DNA of 64,000 nucleotides, from sequence record PZ496580.1; one strand, given 5' to 3'. How positions within the stretch are numbered: the stretch's first letter is position 1; each line of letters starts with the position of its first letter. The stretch comes from a phage. Of this stretch, positions 471 through 12,769 are shown piece by piece. A program made the translations under genes and the position numbers. The notes below the pieces were generated by a model. The model made no database searches and was not told the origin of the DNA. It saw only the letters and a program-made list of their open reading frames with translations.

Positions 471-2522
471 TTACATTTTAAATTTATCTGGCATTGCGTC
501 TACAGATACCAGATCAGCGATAAGCTGACGTAGAGTTGCCTTATCTGCTTTCTTACGTTCGGTTTTAGCTTCGGTAATGAAGCTGGAGAAAGAAAGGTCA
601 GAAGCAGGTTTAACAACACCTTCACGGATGAATGCATCACCGTCCGCGATCATCTCGCCAGATTCTTGTAATGCTGCCAGTTCATTTTTGTTCATAATAT
701 GTGCCTCAATGTAATAAGTTTCTTGTGAATCCGTTGATGCCGTAGCACGAGTTACCGTATCAAAGGATAACACAACACCGCGAGGAAGTAAAATCTCGCA
801 TTCTTTGTAAGCAAATGCCTTGTTACCTACTGGCAATACAGGGATGTTTTCCGCGCCAGCGATAGAGAAAGCAACATTAGCGCCACCTTCACCGCGAGAT
901 CCCGCCATAGAATCAACACCAGCAACGGCACTAGCCACGTTTGCATTCCACCCACCAAAAATATTAGGTGCAAGGGAAGTGCTCACATAGTTTTTAAAGT
1001 AAAACGCTTTTTGCTTACGTGCAGTTTCCCACATTTGAGACCGGAAGTCCATACCACGATACAGAATAGTACCAGGATCAAGTTTAACGCCATAGTTAGA
1101 GAAGGCATTATCCAGTGCATCACACATCTTGACCAATTCTTCTGGGTCTGCGATGCCATCAAACTCTTCCAGCTTACGATCGGTTAGGAAGTTGTTCATA
1201 TTGATGTATGCTGCATCGGCATATTCGCTCAACACAAAACCTTCCGCGCCAGGCAGGTCAAGATCAATATCTGCCATCATTTCACCCATGTTGCTAGCAA
1301 TTGCTTCAAACATACCGGAAGCAACATTACGCAGGGCATCGGTTTTAATCTGCGTGATGTGACTACGAAGCATTTCAGCTTTTACATCTGCTGGCATAGA
1401 CTGGTCTACTCGATCCATTGCTAAGGCAGTGATCTTGTTTTCGAATACTTCCTCGTTCATGATTTCTTTTAAGCGTTTGATTGATGCTGCGATAACTTCC
1501 GCAGACAACGGATCATATTGATCCTGAACTTTTACCAGTTCGCTTACTGCGTATTTTGCATCGGCCTCGCTTTCAAAAATAGTACGCATGAAACCATAGC
1601 GAGTGATAATATCACTTGTCCAATCATTCAGAGAACGCGCGGTTGAACGTTCTAAGGCTTGACGGTCAATCAGAGTATTAAACTGTTTCTTAGGTTCGGC
1701 TTCGGTGATATCTTCTTCCGGTTTAAGATTAATTTTTTCTGGATGATTCACATAGTCGCTGTTATAGGTCGCTTGAGTTTTCAGCATTTCTTCTTTAGTC
1801 AAACGAGATTTAGCCGCTACGCGTTGTTCTGCTTCCGCGTTTCGTTCTTCTTCTGACACAAGACTAGCCGCATACGCTTCATCTTTAGTCAGAGATTCGC
1901 CAGTAGCCTTAGATACCCAGCGATCACCTAAATCACTTTCTACTTTAGTGAACAAGGATTCATCAAGTTTAATCCCTTTAATCTTATCAATCGCCATCCC
2001 GCGACGTTTGACAACAACTAAAGCGATCTTTTTGCTGGTCATTACTTCCTGCTGGAATACTTCAAACTTCGGTGTACGACGCACCAAACGCTCTATAACG
2101 CGCTTAACCAGTTCGGTCTTACCTTTCATGCGGGATACGTTAAAACGGAACATAACAGCGTCTAATTGCGCTTTACGGGCTGTTTCCATAACCACATCAA
2201 AAGCACTTGCCATAACTGCAATCGGGTTATCGCCTAGACCATTTTTAAGCTGTACAATACGACCGCTTTTGTTCATTTCGCACAGTACAACATGTGCGGT
2301 CTTGTCACCCATACGAATGATTTTAGGTGTTTTGTTGGTGAAGTTACAAAGACGGACAATCACATCTTTATCGCGTGTCTGTACTGCAAAAAGCTGTTTA
2401 GGATTCTGCTTAGGCTTTAAGCACTGTACCGGGGCAATACTGCCAAAGTTTTCTTCCTCTTCTGTCAACAGCCATTTCTCGAAAGATTCAATCATTAGAT
2501 CGTCGATTTCTAAGTTAAACAT
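471..2522 (-). CDS. alt: Alt-like ADP-ribosyltransferase (virion-packaged RNAP-modifying enzyme)
   Basis: 683 aa (T4 Alt ~682 aa); C-terminal region has R (LYRGM), STS (YVSTSL) and ExE (KECEI) ART signature; sits after gene 30 as in T4. Confidence 0.7.
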   Translation of the reverse strand: MFNLEIDDLMIESFEKWLLTEEEENFGSIAPVQCLKPKQNPKQLFAVQTRDKDVIVRLCNFTNKTPKIIRMGDKTAHVVLCEMNKSGRIVQLKNGLGDNPIAVMASAFDVVMETARKAQLDAVMFRFNVSRMKGKTELVKRVIERLVRRTPKFEVFQQEVMTSKKIALVVVKRRGMAIDKIKGIKLDESLFTKVESDLGDRWVSKATGESLTKDEAYAASLVSEEERNAEAEQRVAAKSRLTKEEMLKTQATYNSDYVNHPEKINLKPEEDITEAEPKKQFNTLIDRQALERSTARSLNDWTSDIITRYGFMRTIFESEADAKYAVSELVKVQDQYDPLSAEVIAASIKRLKEIMNEEVFENKITALAMDRVDQSMPADVKAEMLRSHITQIKTDALRNVASGMFEAIASNMGEMMADIDLDLPGAEGFVLSEYADAAYINMNNFLTDRKLEEFDGIADPEELVKMCDALDNAFSNYGVKLDPGTILYRGMDFRSQMWETARKQKAFYFKNYVSTSLAPNIFGGWNANVASAVAGVDSMAGSRGEGGANVAFSIAGAENIPVLPVGNKAFAYKECEILLPRGVVLSFDTVTRATASTDSQETYYIEAHIMNKNELAALQESGEMIADGDAFIREGVVKPASDLSFSSFITEAKTERKKADKATLRQLIADLVSVDAMPDKFKM

Positions 2523-2874: not shown

Positions 2875-3393
2875 TTAGTTATTTTTTAATTGCTCATCTT
2901 GCAATAGGGCAATCACATGCTGGCGATGTTCTTCCGATTGAGGCACACCGAAAAAGTTTGTTTTGTAGAAATACTCTAATCGGTCTTCTCGTGTGCTCTC
3001 TTCCATCATGATCGCTGGTAGACCAAGATTGCGGAAACGTCGCTTTTCTGCTGGCGTAAAATCGCTGTAATACAGCATAGAATCATCATTACCAGCAATG
3101 CTAAACTCATCCTTCATGAAGGAGAATATTGCGTTTAAACGCTGTTTACCGTCCACGATTTCGATCTCATAGCGAGAGCCATCATCAATCTTAGCCATTG
3201 CGATAGCGCCTACCGGAAAATCATTAATCAGGTTTTCGATAAACATACGTTTGTTTTCTGTGTCCCATACCAAAGGACGCTGATAATCTGGGTTCATGTT
3301 GATATAGCCATCTTCTAACCATGCTTCGTAAACAGAGATGACAAAGTTTTTAGTATTGGTATAGTAACGGCGTTTAGGCGTTAAACGGTTCAT
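2875..3393 (-). CDS. DUF262 / ParB-Srx-like nuclease-NTPase domain protein
   Basis: 172 aa; DYQRPLVW ... DGKQRL motifs match the DUF262 N-terminal signature; ATGA overlap with upstream small ORF. Confidence 0.5.
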   Translation of the reverse strand: MNRLTPKRRYYTNTKNFVISVYEAWLEDGYINMNPDYQRPLVWDTENKRMFIENLINDFPVGAIAMAKIDDGSRYEIEIVDGKQRLNAIFSFMKDEFSIAGNDDSMLYYSDFTPAEKRRFRNLGLPAIMMEESTREDRLEYFYKTNFFGVPQSEEHRQHVIALLQDEQLKNN

Positions 3394-3569: not shown

Positions 3570-3901
3570 AATATAGTTCTCCTGAATGGATCATCACGTA
3601 AATCAATATCTTTTAAGAACTCATCCCATGAATGGCGGATATTGTTCTTAATTCTCCAGATAAGCGCAGGGATTGAACGCTCACCCATCTGGAAGTAAGG
3701 ATCATATGATCCGTATGCCCAATATGCTACTACAATTCCACAATCAGCGCAATAGTATTCTATCTCGCTTGCTGGCGACCAAAGTCCATCAATATGATCG
3801 GTGATCTTGCTTTCAATGTTATGACTATGGCAATTAGGGCAACGTATGCAATGACCTTGTTTATCGTAATTTGACGTTAGAGAATACTTAAACAATCTCA
3901 T
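3566..3901 (-). CDS. zinc-ribbon protein (CxxC..CxxC)
   Basis: 111 aa with CIRCPNCH and CADCG cysteine pairs; translationally coupled to the upstream methyltransferase-like gene. Confidence 0.45.
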   Translation of the reverse strand: MRLFKYSLTSNYDKQGHCIRCPNCHSHNIESKITDHIDGLWSPASEIEYYCADCGIVVAYWAYGSYDPYFQMGERSIPALIWRIKNNIRHSWDEFLKDIDLRDDPFRRTIL

Positions 3902-4617
3902 TATAGATCCTTATTGGCTTCAAATACTGCCTTTGCGAATCCTCGCGGGGTAAGTGACCTGATAGTCTTTGTTCTGGTTCCTTTCCCGCCTAGCTTAGAA
4001 TGCTGTTTGCTGTACCCTTTATTAATCGGCAACGGTTTCTTTTCTGGCATTATAAAGCCTTGTCCGGTCCACAAGCAAGTCTTTTTCGGGTACATATCAC
4101 GGGAGGCAATATACTCAGGAAACGTAGGATGTATATCATCTTCCGGCAAATAACCGCCATATTCCCACGGATGGAACATGTAATCAGGCTTACGCCACAT
4201 GCTAGAGATAACGCTTACAGGATTCTCTATCATGTAGGGAACTCCTAGCCATTCACCCAAATAAGCGGTTATTTTAGCTGCCCTTACATCATGAATTTGA
4301 ATTAATGGTCCTTGCTCTCGTTTCTTTCGTTCAAAGTGTGCAGCGCCACTAACAGCTAAATTGGTGCATGGTGGGAATGCAAATATAATATCCGGTTTCC
4401 CCCATTCAAGGTCCATTGCTCTTTCCAGCCAGTTCAAATCAATCCATGTGTTTACATAGGTAATGTTTGGATGTTCAAATCGGGTATTATATTTTTTGTA
4501 TGTACCGTGGTCGCCATCGTCAGCATTAAAGCAGATCACCTTATGACCTGCTTTAGCCCATTCTAGCCCCATTATCCCCGATCCGTCAAAGTTGCAGAAT
4601 ATTAATTTTTGTTTCAT
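3901..4617 (-). CDS. minimal C5-cytosine methyltransferase-like protein (no target-recognition domain)
   Basis: 238 aa; motif I-like FCNFDGSG, motif IV-like FPPCT (Pro-Cys nucleophile), motif VI-like ENP; much shorter than canonical DNA C5-MTases. Confidence 0.4.
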   Translation of the reverse strand: MKQKLIFCNFDGSGIMGLEWAKAGHKVICFNADDGDHGTYKKYNTRFEHPNITYVNTWIDLNWLERAMDLEWGKPDIIFAFPPCTNLAVSGAAHFERKKREQGPLIQIHDVRAAKITAYLGEWLGVPYMIENPVSVISSMWRKPDYMFHPWEYGGYLPEDDIHPTFPEYIASRDMYPKKTCLWTGQGFIMPEKKPLPINKGYSKQHSKLGGKGTRTKTIRSLTPRGFAKAVFEANKDL

Positions 4618-5176: not shown

Positions 5177-5190
5177 CACTTTTTATAAAA

Positions 5191-5358
5191 TTATTTGTTA
5201 ATTTCCGGTGCGTTGCTCGGATAGTAACCTTCTTTAACTCCGAGGTATTTCGCAACCATCCCTACAATCTTCTGTGCTACTACAATGTCAAATTTCAGAT
5301 AATCTTCGCCGTGGGTTTCAATGATATATGCTTCACATGCTGCTTTAGTCTCGAACAT
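5191..5358 (-). CDS. hypothetical small protein (55 aa), copy 1 of duplicated gene
   Basis: MFETKAACEAYI...YYPSNAPEINK; about 90 percent nt identity to second copy at 8945..9112; follows conserved leader and SD. Confidence 0.45.
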   Translation of the reverse strand: MFETKAACEAYIIETHGEDYLKFDIVVAQKIVGMVAKYLGVKEGYYPSNAPEINK

Positions 5359-5391
5359 TTTGATTCTCCTATTTCGTTTCGGTATGTGTGT

Positions 5392-6125: not shown

Positions 6126-6146
6126 CAACTTTTTTAAAATTTAGGC

Positions 6147-6172
6147 AATAAAAAGCCGACACTAAGGTCGGC
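6147..6172 (-). terminator. intrinsic terminator (copy 1 of duplicated module)
   Basis: approx; GCCGAC-loop-GTCGGC followed on minus strand by TTTTTATTGCC; near-identical copy at ~6655..6680. Confidence 0.5.
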
Positions 6173-6495: not shown

Positions 6496-6565
6496 TCACT
6501 TCGTATTTGACTCCATCGGCGATAGCTTTTACTTTATACCATCCATGCTTGTATAAAATCTTCAT
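6386..6565 (-). CDS. hypothetical small protein (~59 aa)
   Basis: track ORF trimmed to ATG after GAGGGA SD in conserved leader. Confidence 0.35.
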   Translation of the reverse strand: MKILYKHGWYKVKAIADGVKYEVIVFDGFNTYCEDVKLPSMGCAYDYCKQRIDNKANCF

Positions 6566-6599
6566 CTTTATTTCCCTCAATCTCGTTTCGATGGGTGTA

Positions 6600-6628
6600 T
6601 TATGCTATAGGCGTGATCTGGTGTCAAT
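6600..6628 (-). promoter_or_regulatory. sigma70-type early promoter cassette
   Basis: approx; TTGACA-17-CATAAT. Confidence 0.5.
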
Positions 6629-6654
6629 GCCTTTTTTTTTAAAAATTTTATGCA

Positions 6655-6680
6655 ATAAAAAGCCGACACTAAGGTCGGCT
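6655..6680 (-). terminator. intrinsic terminator (copy 2 of duplicated module)
   Basis: approx; same GCCGACACTAAGGTCGGC hairpin plus T-tract as at ~6147..6172. Confidence 0.5.
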
Positions 6681-6687
6681 AATAAAA

Positions 6688-6996
6688 TCATTTAGACAAA
6701 TAATCATTCTGTGCAATCCGGTCGGCGTATGCTGGTGTTATGTCAATCGCCAGCACTTTAACGCGTGCTTTCTTGCGACCTGAGTTTTCTCGTAACCAGT
6801 GCTCATGACCGTGAACATTTTTATACTTTGATGCTGTTTCGAAAGTACGGATCGGACCTGGGTAATCAGCGTAAAGGATCTCTAGGTCTTCGGTGATGTA
6901 AAAATATACATCATAATTACTGTTCTCTAGTTTAAGCAGAGAGTTGCGTAATTGTGGTAAATTCTCGCGGGTAAATTCAACTACAAGATTTTTCAT
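6688..6996 (-). CDS. paralog family member A (HxHW / VLAxDV motif family)
   Basis: track ORF trimmed to ATG with GAGGAT SD; shares YFYI..D, H.HW and VLAIDI motifs with five neighbouring ORFs. Confidence 0.5.
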   Translation of the reverse strand: MKNLVVEFTRENLPQLRNSLLKLENSNYDVYFYITEDLEILYADYPGPIRTFETASKYKNVHGHEHWLRENSGRKKARVKVLAIDITPAYADRIAQNDYLSK

Positions 6997-7021
6997 AGTG
7001 ATATCCTCATTCAGATAGATT

Positions 7022-7040
7022 AAAAGGGGCTTAACGCCCC
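7022..7040 (-). terminator. hairpin terminator
   Basis: approx; GGGGC-TTAA-GCCCC with flanking A/T runs. Confidence 0.4.
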
Positions 7041-7045
7041 ATATA

Positions 7046-7333
7046 TTAAAACAGTCCTTCCTGTACACCGTAGTAGAGTTCATCGCTGATAATTTCATTA
7101 ATGCGACGGTGTGCATATTCCTGATTTGCGAAGTTGTCAGCAAGTTCTACTTTAGTTTCGCCGTCATGAGTCCATTTAGTGATAACTTTACCATCTGCAA
7201 ATTTGAAGTTGAACTCTTTAGCTACTGCATCGCGTACCAGACGTGCAAACTTGTTGTTACGGATTGCATTATCGGTCTCGTGTGCAGCGTGAGCAAATTT
7301 GTTAACTTTCAGCGTGATAGTGATGTATGCCAT
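7046..7333 (-). CDS. hypothetical protein (95 aa)
   Basis: ORF track; conserved leader and SD. Confidence 0.5.
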   Translation of the reverse strand: MAYITITLKVNKFAHAAHETDNAIRNNKFARLVRDAVAKEFNFKFADGKVITKWTHDGETKVELADNFANQEYAHRRINEIISDELYYGVQEGLF

Positions 7334-7373
7334 TGTTTGATTCTCCTAAGTGGTATCTCGTTTCGATGGGTGT

Positions 7374-7402
7374 ATTATGCTATACACCCGATCTTATGTC
7401 AA
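7374..7402 (-). promoter_or_regulatory. sigma70-type early promoter cassette
   Basis: approx; TTGACA-17-CATAAT. Confidence 0.5.
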
Positions 7403-7407
7403 CACTT

Positions 7408-7686
7408 TTATAAAATAATTTTTTGATATTTTTCTATGATGTTTGAGTAGGTCACATCAACCGCTAGCACCGTTGCTTCGAATCCACCGTCTAGCCAATG
7501 GCTATGGTCATGATCGTGAAAGAAACCAAGACCAGTACGAAGACCTTCTTTATATTCGGCGCGTACATTCAGTTTGTCGTCGATAAACAGATAAAACCAT
7601 GAATTTTTACTAGGATTGATGATACAACCTTTCAGATTAGGGAGAATATCACGACTAAGAATAAACTTATCACCTACTTTGAACAT
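7408..7686 (-). CDS. paralog family member B
   Basis: trimmed to MFKVGD start with GTGAGGA SD; motifs WFYLFIDD, HDHSHWL, VLAVDV. Confidence 0.5.
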   Translation of the reverse strand: MFKVGDKFILSRDILPNLKGCIINPSKNSWFYLFIDDKLNVRAEYKEGLRTGLGFFHDHDHSHWLDGGFEATVLAVDVTYSNIIEKYQKIIL

Positions 7687-7709
7687 AATATTGTCCTCAC
7701 TTATAAAGT

Positions 7710-8009
7710 TTAACTGTTGTTTTTCTCGTAATGCTGCATACGTGCTTGATCTGCTTCCGCTGGTGATAGATTCCATGCGATCACTACAACTTCTGACGCA
7801 TCATGATCATTATCACTTACCCAATGATTATGATTCATACAATTGTTTGCTATCGCGTGAGCAAATGATCTCATTACAGGAGACGTATAATCATAGTAAC
7901 GGATTTTCAGATTTTCATCAACGTACAAATAGATCGTATAAGGTTTATATTCAGTAACCAGTAACAGACAGTTACGCAATTCTGGGAAAATCTTTTTAGT
8001 TAATTTCAT
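7710..8009 (-). CDS. paralog family member C
   Basis: ORF track; motifs IYLYVDE, NHNHW, VVVIAWN. Confidence 0.45.
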   Translation of the reverse strand: MKLTKKIFPELRNCLLLVTEYKPYTIYLYVDENLKIRYYDYTSPVMRSFAHAIANNCMNHNHWVSDNDHDASEVVVIAWNLSPAEADQARMQHYEKNNS

Positions 8010-8211
8010 ATTCTAGTTCTCCGTAATACACGGTAATCCATTTTTCTTCATACTTTGTATCTTTCCAGCACACAATCCCGTTTACTGCGCAATCTTTGGA
8101 ATTGACGAATGATTCATATTGTTCTGCATCTTCCATCATTGCATGAGCGGTCTTTTCATCGAATATATCGCAGATCGCTTTATATGCTCGATAATCTTTA
8201 AATTTGCTCAT
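7996..8211 (-). CDS. hypothetical protein, MSKFKDY tandem duplicate 1
   Basis: trimmed to MSKFKDYRAY; paralogous to adjacent 8214..8423 (shared MSKFKDY..AY...MMEDA..W(K)(D/E)T.Y). Confidence 0.4.
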   Translation of the reverse strand: MSKFKDYRAYKAICDIFDEKTAHAMMEDAEQYESFVNSKDCAVNGIVCWKDTKYEEKWITVYYGELEYEIN

Positions 8212-8213
8212 AA

Positions 8214-8423
8214 TTAACACCATTCAAGAGTTTTTGAAAACACGTCTATCCATTGTTGAGTGTAGCATGTTTCTTTCCATGATACAATACGAGTAGAATA
8301 ATGGTTTTTGTTTCCAGAAAAGGACGGGCATTTTGATGCATCTTCCATCATCTTTTCGGCGAACTCTGGTTCGTATACCCGCAGGATCTGTTGATATGCT
8401 TTATAATCTTTAAATTTGCTCAT
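8214..8423 (-). CDS. hypothetical protein, MSKFKDY tandem duplicate 2
   Basis: ORF track; same N-terminal nucleotide motif as neighbour. Confidence 0.45.
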   Translation of the reverse strand: MSKFKDYKAYQQILRVYEPEFAEKMMEDASKCPSFSGNKNHYSTRIVSWKETCYTQQWIDVFSKTLEWC

Positions 8424-8688
8424 AATTGTTAACTACCTTATCAGCTTCTTTTATTGTTTTTACATCAACTGCGATAATCCGTAAAGGTTCGTCGAAGGTC
8501 CACCAATGATCGTGAATATCAGCTTGTGATTTATCACCAAAGGAATCACGAATATCATTTTTACATTTATAGCTAATATGGCCTTCATAGTCAACATAAA
8601 GGTAATTATCGAAAATCGGCGTTTTTAAGATCATACCGAAAAATCTTTCTTTGTGTGTCTTATCCAGCGTTGCAGTAATTCGCATCAT
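8410..8688 (-). CDS. paralog family member D
   Basis: ORF track; motifs NYLYVDYEG, HDHWW, IIAVDV; GAGGAA SD. Confidence 0.5.
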   Translation of the reverse strand: MMRITATLDKTHKERFFGMILKTPIFDNYLYVDYEGHISYKCKNDIRDSFGDKSQADIHDHWWTFDEPLRIIAVDVKTIKEADKVVNNYEQI

Positions 8689-8700
8689 AATATATTCCTC

Positions 8701-8880
8701 TTAGAAAGGGATGGTCATTTCTTGAGCTTGTACATTCTCATTAGGATTAAACTTCATCCAGCCGATATTGTCTACCAGCATATGCACATTTTTATCATAT
8801 CCTACGTGGGTAGTCAATACTGTATGTGCTTTACCTTCAATTATGAGTTCCATGTACTTCTGAACTTCGATAGCTTTCAT
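8701..8880 (-). CDS. hypothetical small protein (59 aa, below ORF-track cutoff)
   Basis: ATG directly after conserved leader and SD (cat tttgattctcc on plus strand); MKAIEVQKYMELIIEGKAH... Confidence 0.4.
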   Translation of the reverse strand: MKAIEVQKYMELIIEGKAHTVLTTHVGYDKNVHMLVDNIGWMKFNPNENVQAQEMTIPF

Positions 8881-8912
8881 TTTGATTCTCCGTTTGTTGT
8901 CTTGATGGGAGT

Positions 8913-8941
8913 ATCTTACTACTCCCTTTAATCATTGTCAA
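8913..8941 (-). promoter_or_regulatory. sigma70-type early promoter cassette
   Basis: approx; TTGACA-17-TAAGAT; -10 embedded in GGGAGTAGTAAGATACTCCC palindrome. Confidence 0.45.
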
Positions 8942-8944
8942 CTA

Positions 8945-9112
8945 TTATTTGTTAATTTCTGGTGCGTTGCTCGGATAGTAACCTTCTTTAACACCCAGAT
9001 ATTTTGCAACCATTCCGGTGATCTTCTGTGCTACTACGATATCGAATTTCAGGTAGTCTTCACCGTGGTTTGCTACAATGTATGCTTCGCATTCTGCTTT
9101 AGTCTGGAACAT
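8945..9112 (-). CDS. hypothetical small protein (55 aa), copy 2 of duplicated gene
   Basis: MFQTKAECEAYIVANHGEDYLKFDIVVAQK...; near-identical to 5191..5358. Confidence 0.45.
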   Translation of the reverse strand: MFQTKAECEAYIVANHGEDYLKFDIVVAQKITGMVAKYLGVKEGYYPSNAPEINK

Positions 9113-9147
9113 TTTTTGATTCTCCTATATCTCGTTGGTATGTGTGC

Positions 9148-9176
9148 ATTATAGGGGATCACCGATCCCCTGTCAA
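9148..9176 (-). promoter_or_regulatory. sigma70-type early promoter cassette
   Basis: approx; TTGACA-17-TATAAT, spacer GGGGATCGGTGATCCCC identical to cassette at 2838..2866. Confidence 0.6.
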
Positions 9177-9181
9177 CAACT

Positions 9182-9475
9182 TTATAATGCTTTATATGCG
9201 TATTTCATAAATTTGTCTGCCACTTCATTGGCATGTTCAGCTTCTACGCCTGATTCGAGAACAATAGCTAGGTCGGTTTCGTCATTCCCGCCGTACCAAT
9301 GATTTGATGTTCGATTTTTTTCAATTGGAAATTGGTCACTTTTATCTGTGCGACAAAATACATCTAAATGCTCGTCGATGTAAAAGATCCAATCTTCATA
9401 AAGAATAACGGTATTAGCCAGATTTTTATTGCCTTCAACGAAAGGTTCGGCTACAAACAAATTAGTATGTTCCAT
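9182..9475 (-). CDS. paralog family member E (divergent)
   Basis: trimmed to MEHTNLF start with GAGGAA SD; motifs IFYIDEHLDV, SNHW, AIVLESG. Confidence 0.4.
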   Translation of the reverse strand: MEHTNLFVAEPFVEGNKNLANTVILYEDWIFYIDEHLDVFCRTDKSDQFPIEKNRTSNHWYGGNDETDLAIVLESGVEAEHANEVADKFMKYAYKAL

Positions 9476-9491
9476 AACAATTTCCTCAAAA

Positions 9492-9683
9492 TTATACAAC
9501 TTCGTAAACTTCCCAATGTTCAGCGCCAGCACGCTTAACGAAAAGGTTTTCTTTGATGTTATTCATAAACGTATGAATGGATTTAATGCGGTTGGAAGGT
9601 TTCCAGTCTTCGTTAGCATTGCGGCGATACATTATAACATTACCAGATCGCTTATATTCAGCAACCATTTTAAGACCACACAT
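9492..9683 (-). CDS. hypothetical protein (63 aa)
   Basis: ORF track; GAGGAT SD. Confidence 0.4.
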   Translation of the reverse strand: MCGLKMVAEYKRSGNVIMYRRNANEDWKPSNRIKSIHTFMNNIKENLFVKRAGAEHWEVYEVV

Positions 9684-9732
9684 AATATTATCCTCAATTT
9701 GTGGGAGAGTATTACCCCTCCCGATGTTTGTT

Positions 9733-9761
9733 ATATTACATTACACAAAATGGCGTGTCAA
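9733..9761 (-). promoter_or_regulatory. sigma70-type early promoter
   Basis: approx; TTGACA-17-TAATAT, -35 lies inside 3' end of upstream ORF. Confidence 0.4.
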
Positions 9762-10061
9762 TGCTTCTTTTGCTGTTCCGCTAAGACTTTCGATCTCGCC
9801 TGGCATAACATCAACTGCCAGAACTTCTACAACATCCTCGGACCCTAACCAGTGAGTATGACCTTTGTAGAACTTGATGACCAGACTACCTTCCTCGTCC
9901 CATTTAACGCTATCGCTAGCCCACCACACATCACCGTCGATAAAGTTGATGTAAAGCACACTACGCCACATTGAATTAATTACTTTCAATACTGCGCCTT
10001 TCATCTCTTCCACGGTATGGTCTTCCATTTTGAAGACCTCACCTACCTGAACTTTTGCCAT
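9741..10061 (-). CDS. paralog family member F
   Basis: ORF track; motifs LYINFIDGD, GHTHWL, VLAVDVM; GAGAGG SD. Confidence 0.5.
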   Translation of the reverse strand: MAKVQVGEVFKMEDHTVEEMKGAVLKVINSMWRSVLYINFIDGDVWWASDSVKWDEEGSLVIKFYKGHTHWLGSEDVVEVLAVDVMPGEIESLSGTAKEALTRHFV

Positions 10062-10081
10062 TTAGTTTTACCTCTCGTTAA

Positions 10082-10261
10082 TTACATTACGATCACGCCA
10101 GCCGTTGAAAGTTGATGTTTCAACTGAGCATTTTCTGCTACCGTCAAATCAATGATTTCTTGTGACGCTGCAATCATATAGCCATTGGTGATATTGTTTT
10201 GCATCAGTTCAATGGTTTCTTCGTTGTAGCGGATTTTAGCGATGATTTCGTTGAAGTTCAT
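10082..10261 (-). CDS. hypothetical small protein (59 aa)
   Basis: track ORF 10082..10327 trimmed to MNFNEII start; upstream part is the promoter/leader itself. Confidence 0.45.
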   Translation of the reverse strand: MNFNEIIAKIRYNEETIELMQNNITNGYMIAASQEIIDLTVAENAQLKHQLSTAGVIVM

Positions 10262-10295
10262 AATTGATTCTCCTAGTTCGTTTCGGTATGTGTGT

Positions 10296-10324
10296 AGTAT
10301 AGGGGATCGGTGATCCCCTGTCAA
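10296..10324 (-). promoter_or_regulatory. sigma70-type early promoter cassette
   Basis: approx; TTGACA-17-TATACT; GGGGATCACCGATCCCC spacer. Confidence 0.5.
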
Positions 10325-10337
10325 CAACTTTTTTGAA

Positions 10338-10814
10338 TTATTTTTCTTGATGCTCGCGCTCGTACTTTTCGAAATAAAATTCTACTGGCTGGTCGTGGAT
10401 TGAAAGCAAGCCAAAGCGTTTAGCCGCTCGTAATCCCATATTGCGCTGAATGTACTTCTGGAAGTTCTCGCGTATACACTTACGCCAGTATTCTAAGCCC
10501 ATACAGCTTTTATAAAGATTGCATTGCACACATGCCGGATTCATGTTATCAAGTATATCATGCTCCGGTTTATGCATTCCTACAACCTTATACTTCCACG
10601 ATCCATCATCGTTACGGGAAATGCGCCCATTTTCATCATAGACTACTTTTGAGCGTCGTAATACTGGTTTGATATGATCCGCGTGCCAGCGTTCTCCTAG
10701 TACCTCTCCGCAATAGGCACAACGTCCACCGTATTTCATTTTCAGGATCTGGCGTTGCTCTTTCTTTGACAATTTTTTAGGTTTAGGGGCTTTCGCCCCT
10801 TCATTATCACACAT
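10338..10814 (-). CDS. HNH endonuclease (free-standing, candidate homing endonuclease)
   Basis: 158 aa; CAYCGEV...HADHIKP...C..CN motif typical of HNH; start overlaps 3' end of ligase gene by 8 nt. Confidence 0.6.
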   Translation of the reverse strand: MCDNEGAKAPKPKKLSKKEQRQILKMKYGGRCAYCGEVLGERWHADHIKPVLRRSKVVYDENGRISRNDDGSWKYKVVGMHKPEHDILDNMNPACVQCNLYKSCMGLEYWRKCIRENFQKYIQRNMGLRAAKRFGLLSIHDQPVEFYFEKYEREHQEK

Positions 10815-12303
10815 CGAATACCTCTTTTACTGTATTTGCAGTGGTCTTGTCGTAGCGAATACGTTTGATGATCGGGAGAAATAAAGAGAACTCCGGTTCA
10901 TCTTCTTTACGTGATTTGCTGCGGATATACCCGTTGCATGTCATCTCAATGACTTTTCCGATCAGGTTATGACGGTCAGCCCATAACATTTCTCGGTCAA
11001 GTTCATTTCGACGATCGAACGGAATTACACGTTCAATACCATCATCACCTTTTTCGGTTGTGGTGTCGGTCAATCCCGATCCGGTGTTAGTCATCATTCG
11101 TCCGCACGCACTACGGACAGTAAAACCGCCTACCTTATTAGGATCTTTACTATGCGGATATACATCAACAATTTCCGCGTCGAAGTCAATCACTTCTTTA
11201 AATTTAACCTGATCTTTACTGCGACGATCTTCAAATACACCATGTAAATTTTTAAGGATAATACCTTCTAAGCCCATGTTTACATAGCGATGATATACTT
11301 CGCGAGCTTCATCTATATTGTTAACTACAGTGTTTTCGATTATCTGAACACGAGGATCGTTAAGTTCTTCAACAATCTGTTTTAGTTCTTCGAATCGATC
11401 TTTATATTGCTTCGTTGCTTTCTCGTTTCCGTAATACACATCACGGTCGATAACATCCCAGACAGTGTAAACAATACATTGGGCTTCTTCTTTTGGAATA
11501 GTTCCTTTCAGTGATTTGTTGAGGATGCCATTTCCGGTCTGACGATCTGCAACAACGGATTCTTTCACTGCTTCCGCTACTGGCGTTAATGGCATTTCCT
11601 CTTCTTCAAATATCCATGACAGAGTACCGTCATAAACGCTCTCAACGAAGTTCTGCGCTGGTGTTTGCGAAAGGGTAGGCATATATACCAATTCGCCATC
11701 TAGAACAATTCCACGTCCTCGTAGACGCTCTAAAACCGCAAACAAATCATCAAGCCCCTGATAGGTATTACCTGAACGGGTATAGATTGCTAATGTTTCC
11801 CCGTCAATATCAGCCATACCACGAGCGCCATCGCTTTTAAGTTGTGCATATGCAGGATATTTGATATTAGCAATGGCCTTATCAGAATATGACGATGCAA
11901 GGTGGCACGGTTGCTGGGGGATCAGTTTCTTCCATACCTTGTTTGCAGTGGTAGCGGAACAACCGCATTCCAGGTCACGATTCAGGACCATCATTGCAAC
12001 TTTAGCATCATCTTCTGACAAGCAAGTCAGAGTATCGGTAACTAGCTGTAATGCTGCATTGCCAGTTACTTGACGTGTGGCAAGTTTATTTTTAAAGACT
12101 TGTAATGCACCGGATAAAGACAATACAGACGAATATCGCGATGGTTTATCGTATTTCTTTACGCCAAACGTAACCTGTTTGCAATATGCCAGATAAAAGC
12201 ATTCTTTCAGAGTGTCATTGCTTGCTGATTCTTTCAGGATCTTTTCTTTCAGCGATGTTTTGTCTGTTGCTGCAAGCTGATTAATGATATTAAGAATTGA
12301 CAT
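10807..12303 (-). CDS. 30: ATP-dependent DNA ligase
   Basis: ~498 aa; collinear with T4 gp30 from memory (KADGARC-type adenylation Lys region LKSDGARG, GLEGIILKN, C-terminal IKRIRYDKT); track start is GTG, likely true ATG 6 nt downstream. Confidence 0.85.
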   Translation of the reverse strand: MSILNIINQLAATDKTSLKEKILKESASNDTLKECFYLAYCKQVTFGVKKYDKPSRYSSVLSLSGALQVFKNKLATRQVTGNAALQLVTDTLTCLSEDDAKVAMMVLNRDLECGCSATTANKVWKKLIPQQPCHLASSYSDKAIANIKYPAYAQLKSDGARGMADIDGETLAIYTRSGNTYQGLDDLFAVLERLRGRGIVLDGELVYMPTLSQTPAQNFVESVYDGTLSWIFEEEEMPLTPVAEAVKESVVADRQTGNGILNKSLKGTIPKEEAQCIVYTVWDVIDRDVYYGNEKATKQYKDRFEELKQIVEELNDPRVQIIENTVVNNIDEAREVYHRYVNMGLEGIILKNLHGVFEDRRSKDQVKFKEVIDFDAEIVDVYPHSKDPNKVGGFTVRSACGRMMTNTGSGLTDTTTEKGDDGIERVIPFDRRNELDREMLWADRHNLIGKVIEMTCNGYIRSKSRKEDEPEFSLFLPIIKRIRYDKTTANTVKEVFDV

Positions 12304-12769
12304 TTTCACCTCGTTTTGTTAAACGTTCACGAATATCATTGAGGATACTACAAAATTCTGATTCGGTCAATATGGTCTTTAACGGATCAGTTCCACCTAT
12401 GCTATGACGTAATTTCTTATTTCCGGTAGCGAGTAACGCTTTACAAAATTCCGGGTTATTCCTTGCCATCGTAACAAATGCCAGATGTACCAGTCTGTAA
12501 TAATGCTCACTCATTCGATGAATCGGGCGACCCTGAAAATATAACATGTGATTCTCTATCTTTTCAGTCCTTCCGGTTCTTTTTGCTTTGCCACCGTACA
12601 TCAAAAAGATTTCTCTTTGTCTCTGAGGGTTCTTAAATCTTAGCCCCTGTAAAAATCCTTCTGTGCTGTTAATATCGCAACCAAATAGACGGAATGGTCT
12701 TTTATTGAAATTACTCAATTCACCAGATGGATAAGGTCCACCCGCATAGATATCAATTTCAGAAGTCAT
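12290..12769 (-). CDS. NADAR (YbiA/DUF1768)-like protein, candidate ADP-ribose-processing glycohydrolase
   Basis: 159 aa; GELSNF, STEGFLQGLRF and KALLATGNKKL motifs resemble NADAR family signatures. Confidence 0.5.
   Translation of the reverse strand: MTSEIDIYAGGPYPSGELSNFNKRPFRLFGCDINSTEGFLQGLRFKNPQRQREIFLMYGGKAKRTGRTEKIENHMLYFQGRPIHRMSEHYYRLVHLAFVTMARNNPEFCKALLATGNKKLRHSIGGTDPLKTILTESEFCSILNDIRERLTKRGENVNS

Follow-up and report, generated by a model that had tools for sequence, protein, structure and literature searches.

Six small tandem genes of an RB49-like Krischvirus are best explained as old duplicates of one soluble domain

T4-type phages have large hyperplastic regions given over to small early genes whose functions are unknown. 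Whether the members of such a region can be related to one another, and what they might do for the phage, is the question raised by six small open reading frames (ORFs; m1 to m6) that lie between positions 6,688 and 10,061 of a 64,000-nucleotide (nt) stretch of phage DNA (sequence record PZ496580.1), the whole of which is called the window. The best explanation is that the six ORFs are anciently duplicated genes for one small (approximately 85-110 amino acids, aa) soluble alpha/beta domain. Positions 6500-10300 of the window matched 59 records of GenBank phages (megablast), nearly all at 90-95% identity (RB49, 93.5%), and 58 of these 59 records bore the names Escherichia, Shigella, Enterobacteria or Krischvirus. 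Judged from these matches, the window is an RB49-like Krischvirus genome, a T4-like coliphage, with 93-95% nucleotide identity to RB49.

All six ORFs were present at the coordinates originally given (Table 1), on the minus strand, each with a ribosome-binding site (RBS) and each matching an annotated coding sequence of RB49, one-to-one. The RBS was GAGGA-like and approximately 8-9 nt ahead of the ATG in 6/6 members. All genes of the cluster region were on the minus strand. The matching RB49 stretch was annotated with hypothetical proteins only; DNA ligase (gp30) and an HNH endonuclease bounded it at one end, and a DNA methyltransferase at the other. The six members thus sit in a hyperplastic accessory region that has the ligase (gene 30) and HNH genes to one side and the DNA methyltransferase and Alt-like ADP-ribosyltransferase genes to the other.

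Leave-one-out profile hidden Markov models (HMMs), searched against the 624 stop-to-stop ORFs of the window (at least 40 aa, six frames), returned the omitted member as top non-training match in 6/6 runs (m1, E = 2.7e-12; m2, 4.7e-7; m3, 1.1e-12; m4, 4.3e-4; m5, 4.6e-3; m6, 1.3e-7; decoys, E ≥ 0.06), which put the homology of the tandem six-member family beyond chance and sustained the original prediction in this respect. A wider family profile found exactly six members in the 64-kb window (next match, E = 0.17). Pairwise protein identity to m1 was 18-35%, and matches of m5, the most divergent member, were unconvincing when taken pairwise and alone. PHROG profiles 9345, 17255, 15972, 15965 and 16486 matched the window proteins end to end (E = 1e-48 to 1e-72); all five were labelled 'unknown function' and cross-matched one another weakly. 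The PHROGs database splits the six members into five families, whereas the profile searches showed these five to be one family. Full-text and term searches of the literature found no family description or function for the ORFs.

The shared motifs were more restricted than had been proposed. The central H.HW was present in five members and absent from m5, which has SNHW in the window and HNHW in most of its orthologs; it occurred five times in the 53,118 six-frame translated residues of the window, 5/5 inside the family. The C-terminal (V/I)LA(V/I)DV was missing from m3 (VIAWNL) and m5 (IVLESGV), where the Asp of VLAxDV was replaced by N or G, and the Asp of YxYID was replaced by T or N in m1 and m6. 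Among 33 family sequences, one His and the Trp following it were invariant, and one Tyr (of the YxYID strand) and the first His were approximately 90% conserved. Isoelectric points (pI) ranged from 7.9 (m1) to 4.5 (m5), with net charge varying widely across paralogs. In some deposited genomes m1 or m5 was frameshifted or truncated (P0065, from phage kvi; P0087, from phage JSE; P0088), with C-termini diverging past the point of the shift; these versions are either sequencing errors or occasional natural inactivations of single paralogs.

AlphaFold2 models of m1 (predicted local distance difference test, pLDDT, 86; predicted template modelling score, pTM, 0.81) and m2 (pLDDT 88, pTM 0.84) agreed on the order b-a-b-b-b-loop-a(HxHW)-b-a, in which a strand and a short helix precede a meander of three strands; then come a variable loop predicted with low confidence, the short HxHW-bearing helix, the VLAxDV strand and a C-terminal helix. 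Within orthologous groups, substitutions clustered in the N-terminus, in the loop before HxHW and in the C-terminal tail, and the core strands and HxHW were without variation. Structure searches found no significant known relative of the predicted fold, YopQ and AcrIIA7 recurring as weak matches in both lists. Significant Foldseek matches in BFVD (E ≤ 0.001) were to coliphage proteins only, including those of Krischvirus phages kvi, PHB13 and JSE, and look like the family's own members. Scans of the 33 family sequences against Pfam and NCBIfam gave chance-level matches only, 0/33 matched a PADLOC profile at E ≤ 1, and no match in profile searches against PDB sequences had an E-value lower than 0.67.

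Four known families were considered and rejected. JAMM proteins have an MPN fold with the metal-binding motif E...HxHx7Sx2D; for JAB/MPN (JAMM, including PROCT), the PROCT match of m2 was below threshold and seen in 2/33 members, and the MPN/JAMM features were absent. No HxHxHxx on a strand of a histidine-triad (HIT) fold was found. Matches to metallo-beta-lactamases spanned 44-50 residues of proteins of more than 200 aa and lacked HxHxDH. The features of KOW/Spt5-like proteins (KOW motif, SH3-like barrel, Pfam KOW match) were likewise absent.

The ratio of nonsynonymous to synonymous substitution rates (dN/dS; Nei-Gojobori, gene-wide), calculated per orthologous group across the window and seven Krischvirus genomes (n = 8), was 0.22, 0.16, 0.17, 0.14, 0.20 and 0.10 for m1 to m6, respectively, compared with 0.02 for the ligase, 0.05 for the HNH gene and 0-0.31 for the interleaved small ORFs. 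The calculation was kept within orthologous groups because synonymous sites were saturated between paralogs (18-35% protein identity). With values of 0.10-0.22, the six members are constrained coding sequences under purifying selection, as is typical of accessory genes. The diversifying selection that the number of diverged copies had suggested found no support in the gene-wide values of any orthologous group. A fluid copy number was not observed either: exactly six members, in unchanged order, were present in 9/9 Krischvirus-type loci compared (the window; seven GenBank Krischvirus loci, L001-L007; and L012, a 170-kb metagenomic Krischvirus-like contig).

A recent expansion did not agree with the grouping of divergent metagenomic relatives (L008, L009, L010), which paired with particular paralogs (m6-like, 50% identity; m3-like, 44%; m4-like, 38%; m5-like, 37%), the neighbour-joining tree agreeing with this pairing. 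As relatives were 37-50% identical to single paralogs, compared with 18-35% between paralogs, the duplications look old and stably retained, and predate the split from the divergent metagenomic lineages.

An exhaustive HMMER scan, covering 1.84 billion cluster representatives, returned 20 matches in total, 12 of them divergent metagenomic members (84-203 aa) and one, a 532-aa repeat protein, a probable false positive; none was a bacterial homolog, and every match whose contig was examined had a T4-like phage or phage-like context. In a word-index protein search, each of the 88 matches shared 69% identity or more with one of the six members; the same search with the wider profile added two m4 variants and no bacterial homologs. 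Searching GenBank phages with the divergent member P0093 (tblastn) returned only the same Krischvirus-like records. From these searches, the domain appears to be restricted to RB49-type T4-like phages and a handful of uncultured relatives. In one of these, a 20-kb divergent T4-like contig (L010), two m5-like genes were just downstream of 30.3, the ligase and an HNH-like gene, with Alt-like genes following them. Another, a 2.1-kb metagenomic contig (L008), had five family domains in four adjacent genes; its 203-aa protein P0089 (823-1434) carried two fused family domains, with HNHW in each and a Lys/Asp-rich linker; in the MAFFT alignment that included it, single-domain members were split, half onto each P0089 domain.

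Repeated 70-90-nt elements of the window, comprising a sigma-70 consensus, a G/C stem-loop, an RBS and a start codon, were the published PeSL elements, described in RB49 and phi1 as an AT-rich stretch, TTGACA-N17-TATAAT, a G/C stem-loop, an RBS and a start codon (PMC2839356). Five such composite elements were in or next to the cluster, all on the minus strand (10324, 9761, 9176, 8941 and 7402, that at 9761 being weaker; Table 1). Most members had been expected to have a promoter cassette of their own, an expectation that failed: every cassette directly preceded a different, unrelated small ORF, with m6, m5, m4 and m1 as second genes of their units, m3 as fifth and m2 as sixth. PeSL206/205, which corresponds to 9176-9148 of the window, drove strong lacZ expression (PMC2839356). 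No promoter-like site was found between ORF 7046-7333 and m1, and a terminator-like hairpin lies there; expression of m1 would therefore need read-through.

In the proposed model, the paralogs would bind their targets stoichiometrically, each having a target of its own, from the host or from a competitor. A common scaffold would comprise the YxYID strand, the turn with HxHW, and the VLAxDV strand with the C-terminal helix, and specificity would reside in the N-terminus, in surface charge (pI 4.5 to 7.9) and in the variable low-confidence loop before HxHW. The His and Trp that are invariant would serve as a structural clamp or as a shared contact site, and the domain may act as a dimer, as the two-domain fusion P0089 hints. 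Early transcription of the members would depend on the sigma-70 RNA polymerase of the host, which would start at PeSL promoters and reach the members as downstream genes in short polycistronic units. Because the region is accessory and probably transcribed early, an accessory role, e.g., in host takeover or anti-defence, is plausible; many characterised small early genes of T4-type phages are host-takeover or counter-defence factors. The fixed core, variable regions and differing charge suggest one scaffold with different surfaces, and so favour stoichiometric binders whose targets differ from paralog to paralog and which would act in host takeover or counter-defence, a reading that is nevertheless held only tentatively. 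Several points weigh against it. The family is annotated throughout as hypothetical or of unknown function; an invariant His would be equally expected if the proteins were small enzymes or bound metal; arms-race specificity factors do not usually show gene-wide purifying selection and a fixed copy number; m1 is behind a terminator-like hairpin; and early transcription of the members is read from promoter sequence and one published reporter assay. A bolder version, improbable as it stands, is an 'immunity array' in which each paralog would be dedicated to inhibiting one anti-phage effector or toxin of the host, different for each, or a weapon of a competing phage, by means of a previously unseen HxHW fold; its members may be homo- or heterodimers, as the same fusion hints.

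The invariant His is shared ground with the main alternative, that of a small metal-dependent enzyme or a metal- or ligand-binding protein, in which HxH would provide two ligands and paralogs would differ in substrate; perhaps a dimer interface would complete the site with four His, and the protein would act on a nucleotide, second messenger or small molecule. The first His is, however, S in the m5 of the window and its ortholog P0070 and N in P0094, despite purifying selection, and no further Asp, Glu, Cys or His was invariant across the family, which together argue against a conserved single-chain metal site. The replacements of the YxYID and VLAxDV Asp in m1, m6, m3 and m5 also count against this alternative, as do the searches of Pfam, NCBIfam and PDB sequences, in which no enzyme family was matched, and it is considered unlikely.

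Selfish, PeSL-flanked cassette payloads, multiplied by PeSL-mediated recombination, present in a number set by cassette mobility and not by benefit to the phage, and with little or no function at the level of the phage, would accord with the known hyperplasticity of the region, where ORFans flanked by PeSLs are gained, lost or exchanged, and with the detection of PeSL mini-circles (PMC2839356). They would also accord with a duplicated PeSL-plus-ORF cassette nearby (5190-5361, 8944-9115) and with the differing order and number of members in the distant relatives L008 and L010. Yet no family member is directly behind a PeSL, the six-copy set and its order were invariant in the Krischvirus loci sampled, every copy had a dN/dS of 0.10-0.22, and identities of 18-35% between paralogs exclude a recent cassette duplication; a selfish origin of this kind is accordingly very unlikely. 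That a known fold was missed, be it JAB/MPN (from the weak PROCT match), HIT or KOW/Spt5-like (a label given to ortholog P0075 by one database source), is scarcely credible.

The genes belong to a familiar class, that of phage accessory ORFan families, and the family is not a new kind of system. One of its closest counterparts is the set of PeSL-flanked ORFan cassettes of RB49 and phi1, from the same phage group and region (Arbiol et al. 2010, PMC2839356; Comeau et al. 2014, PMC4122927), with which it shares composite PeSL elements and small early ORFs without known homologs. Those papers treat regulatory cassettes and gene gain and loss among close relatives; the six genes, in contrast, are not first behind PeSLs and are among the stable components of the region. 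Term searches of the 2010 paper (PMC2839356) found no paralog family and none of these ORF numbers. The T4-type accessory families alt/modA/modB and the internal proteins are likewise multi-copy, diverged, early or accessory, and located in plastic regions, and paralogous duplications close to alt had already been noted in RB49 (PMC1524935). The present family, however, has no sequence relationship to these families and no ADP-ribosyltransferase domains, and, unlike internal proteins, no capsid-targeting leader apparent by eye. Small toxin-immunity and inhibitor proteins, such as the Tas1 immunity protein (PDB 6ox6 chain B) and AcrIIA7 (8kbi), also count among the near systems. Polymorphic-toxin immunity proteins (the Tas1 immunity protein, Imm19 and CdiI) are marked by specific, neutralising binding of a cognate toxin and by folds particular to each family. 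The PeSL and ORFan architecture is already published and the genes are annotated as hypothetical in dozens of genomes; the unification of five PHROGs, the old and fixed six-copy set, and the confident predicted fold without a detectable relative are new.

Six proteins of approximately 95 aa, in which a single His-Trp pair is invariant and a single loop variable, offer a well-defined and tractable target set for functional screens. Should each paralog turn out to neutralise a separate host system, the family would be a new one among anti-defence proteins and would help to explain host-range determinants in Krischvirus phages, some of which, phi1 for one, are used in therapy (PMC2839356). With the 'immunity array', a multi-target anti-defence family would be fixed across a whole phage genus; if the paralogs do not act in this manner, the family would be an ordinary piece of phage dark matter.

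Table 1. Positions of the six family members, of putative regulatory elements, and of interleaved and flanking genes in the window
Feature	Coordinates	Strand	Details
m1	6688..6996	-	102 aa; RB49 ORF197; HGHEHW; phrog_9345
m2	7408..7686	-	92 aa; RB49 ORF199; HDHSHW; phrog_17255
m3	7710..8009	-	99 aa; RB49 ORF200; NHNHW; phrog_9345; start overlaps end of ORF 7996-8223
m4	8410..8688	-	92 aa; RB49 ORF203; IHDHW; phrog_15972; stop overlaps start of ORF 8214-8423
m5	9182..9475	-	97 aa; RB49 ORF206; SNHW; pI 4.5; phrog_15965
m6	9741..10061	-	106 aa; RB49 ORF208; GHTHW; pI 4.8; phrog_16486
PeSL early promoter	10296..10324	-	TTGACA-N17-TATACT, stem-loop in spacer; unit: ORF 10082-10261, m6
Weaker promoter-like site	9733..9761	-	TTGACA-N17-TAATAT; inside 3' end of m6; followed by stem-loop at ~9703-9722; unit: ORF 9492-9683, m5
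PeSL early promoter	9148..9176	-	perfect TTGACA-N17-TATAAT; unit: ORF 8945-9112 (not a family member)
PeSL early promoter	8913..8941	-	TTGACA-N17-TAAGAT; unit: ORF 8701-8880, m4, ORF 8214-8423, ORF 7996-8223, m3, m2
PeSL early promoter	7374..7402	-	TTGACA-N17-CATAAT; unit: ORF 7046-7333, terminator-like hairpin, m1, terminator
Terminator-like hairpin	7026..7040	-	GGGGCGTTAAGCCCC plus T-run (TTTT); between ORF 7046-7333 and m1
Terminator-like hairpin	6661..6680	-	with T-run; directly after m1, at cluster end
Interleaved ORF	7046..7333	-	95 aa; phrog_7474, unknown function; first behind PeSL 7402
Two interleaved paralogous ORFs	8214-8423, 7996-8223	-	phrog_8471; 44% aa identity; between m4 and m3
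Interleaved ORF	8701..8880	-	59 aa; phrog_15082; first behind PeSL 8941
Interleaved ORF	9492..9683	-	63 aa; phrog_16334; immediately upstream of m5
Interleaved ORF	10082..10261	-	59 aa; phrog_14803; immediately upstream of m6
HNH gene	10338-10814		
DNA ligase (gene 30)	10807-12309		
ORF at position of RB49 DNA methyltransferase gene	3901-4617		equal in length to RB49 gene; no Pfam match
Alt-like ADP-ribosyltransferase	471-2522		

Some interleaved ORFs accompanied family members in other genomes. In L008, counterparts of m6 and of the 59-aa ORF preceding it were likewise adjacent (25-213 with 229-573; 67% and 50% aa identity to window 10082-10261 and 9741-10061, respectively), and the 59-aa ORF upstream of m4 had a 54%-identical homolog in the same contig. 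The two phrog_8471 ORFs had overlapping stop/start junctions with their neighbours, the junction sequence AATTATGAGCAAATTTAAAGATTAT occurring twice (8173-8215, 8385-8427). Homologs of phrog_8471 were also near family members in L009, L010 and L012, and these ORFs may be in a functional partnership with the family.

Repeats were found in and around the cluster. A 172-nt direct repeat (5190-5361 and 8944-9115; 85% nt identity, 3.7 kb apart) held a 55-aa ORF twice (5191-5358, 8945-9112; 89% aa identity), the second copy matching phrog_8009, of unknown function. Both copies were directly behind a consensus PeSL promoter, and the repeat looks like a duplicated PeSL-plus-ORFan cassette. The terminator-like hairpin GCCGACCTTAGTGTCGGC, with its T-run and flanks, occurred twice (6130-6172, 6637-6679; 91% identity), each copy just upstream of a PeSL promoter. 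The spacer stem-loops of two PeSL elements (9153-9171 and 10301-10319) had a common stem, GGGGATC...GATCCCC, and a 5-nt centre that was inverted between them (CACCG and CGGTG), the two stem-loops being exact reverse complements.

A 172-aa ORF (2875-3393, minus strand), located between the gene for the Alt-like ADP-ribosyltransferase and the ORF that occupies the methyltransferase position, matched the domain found at the N-terminus of GmrSD type IV restriction enzymes (PF03235, E = 4e-20) and appears to be a stand-alone phage-encoded domain; the same Pfam mark was carried by L012.

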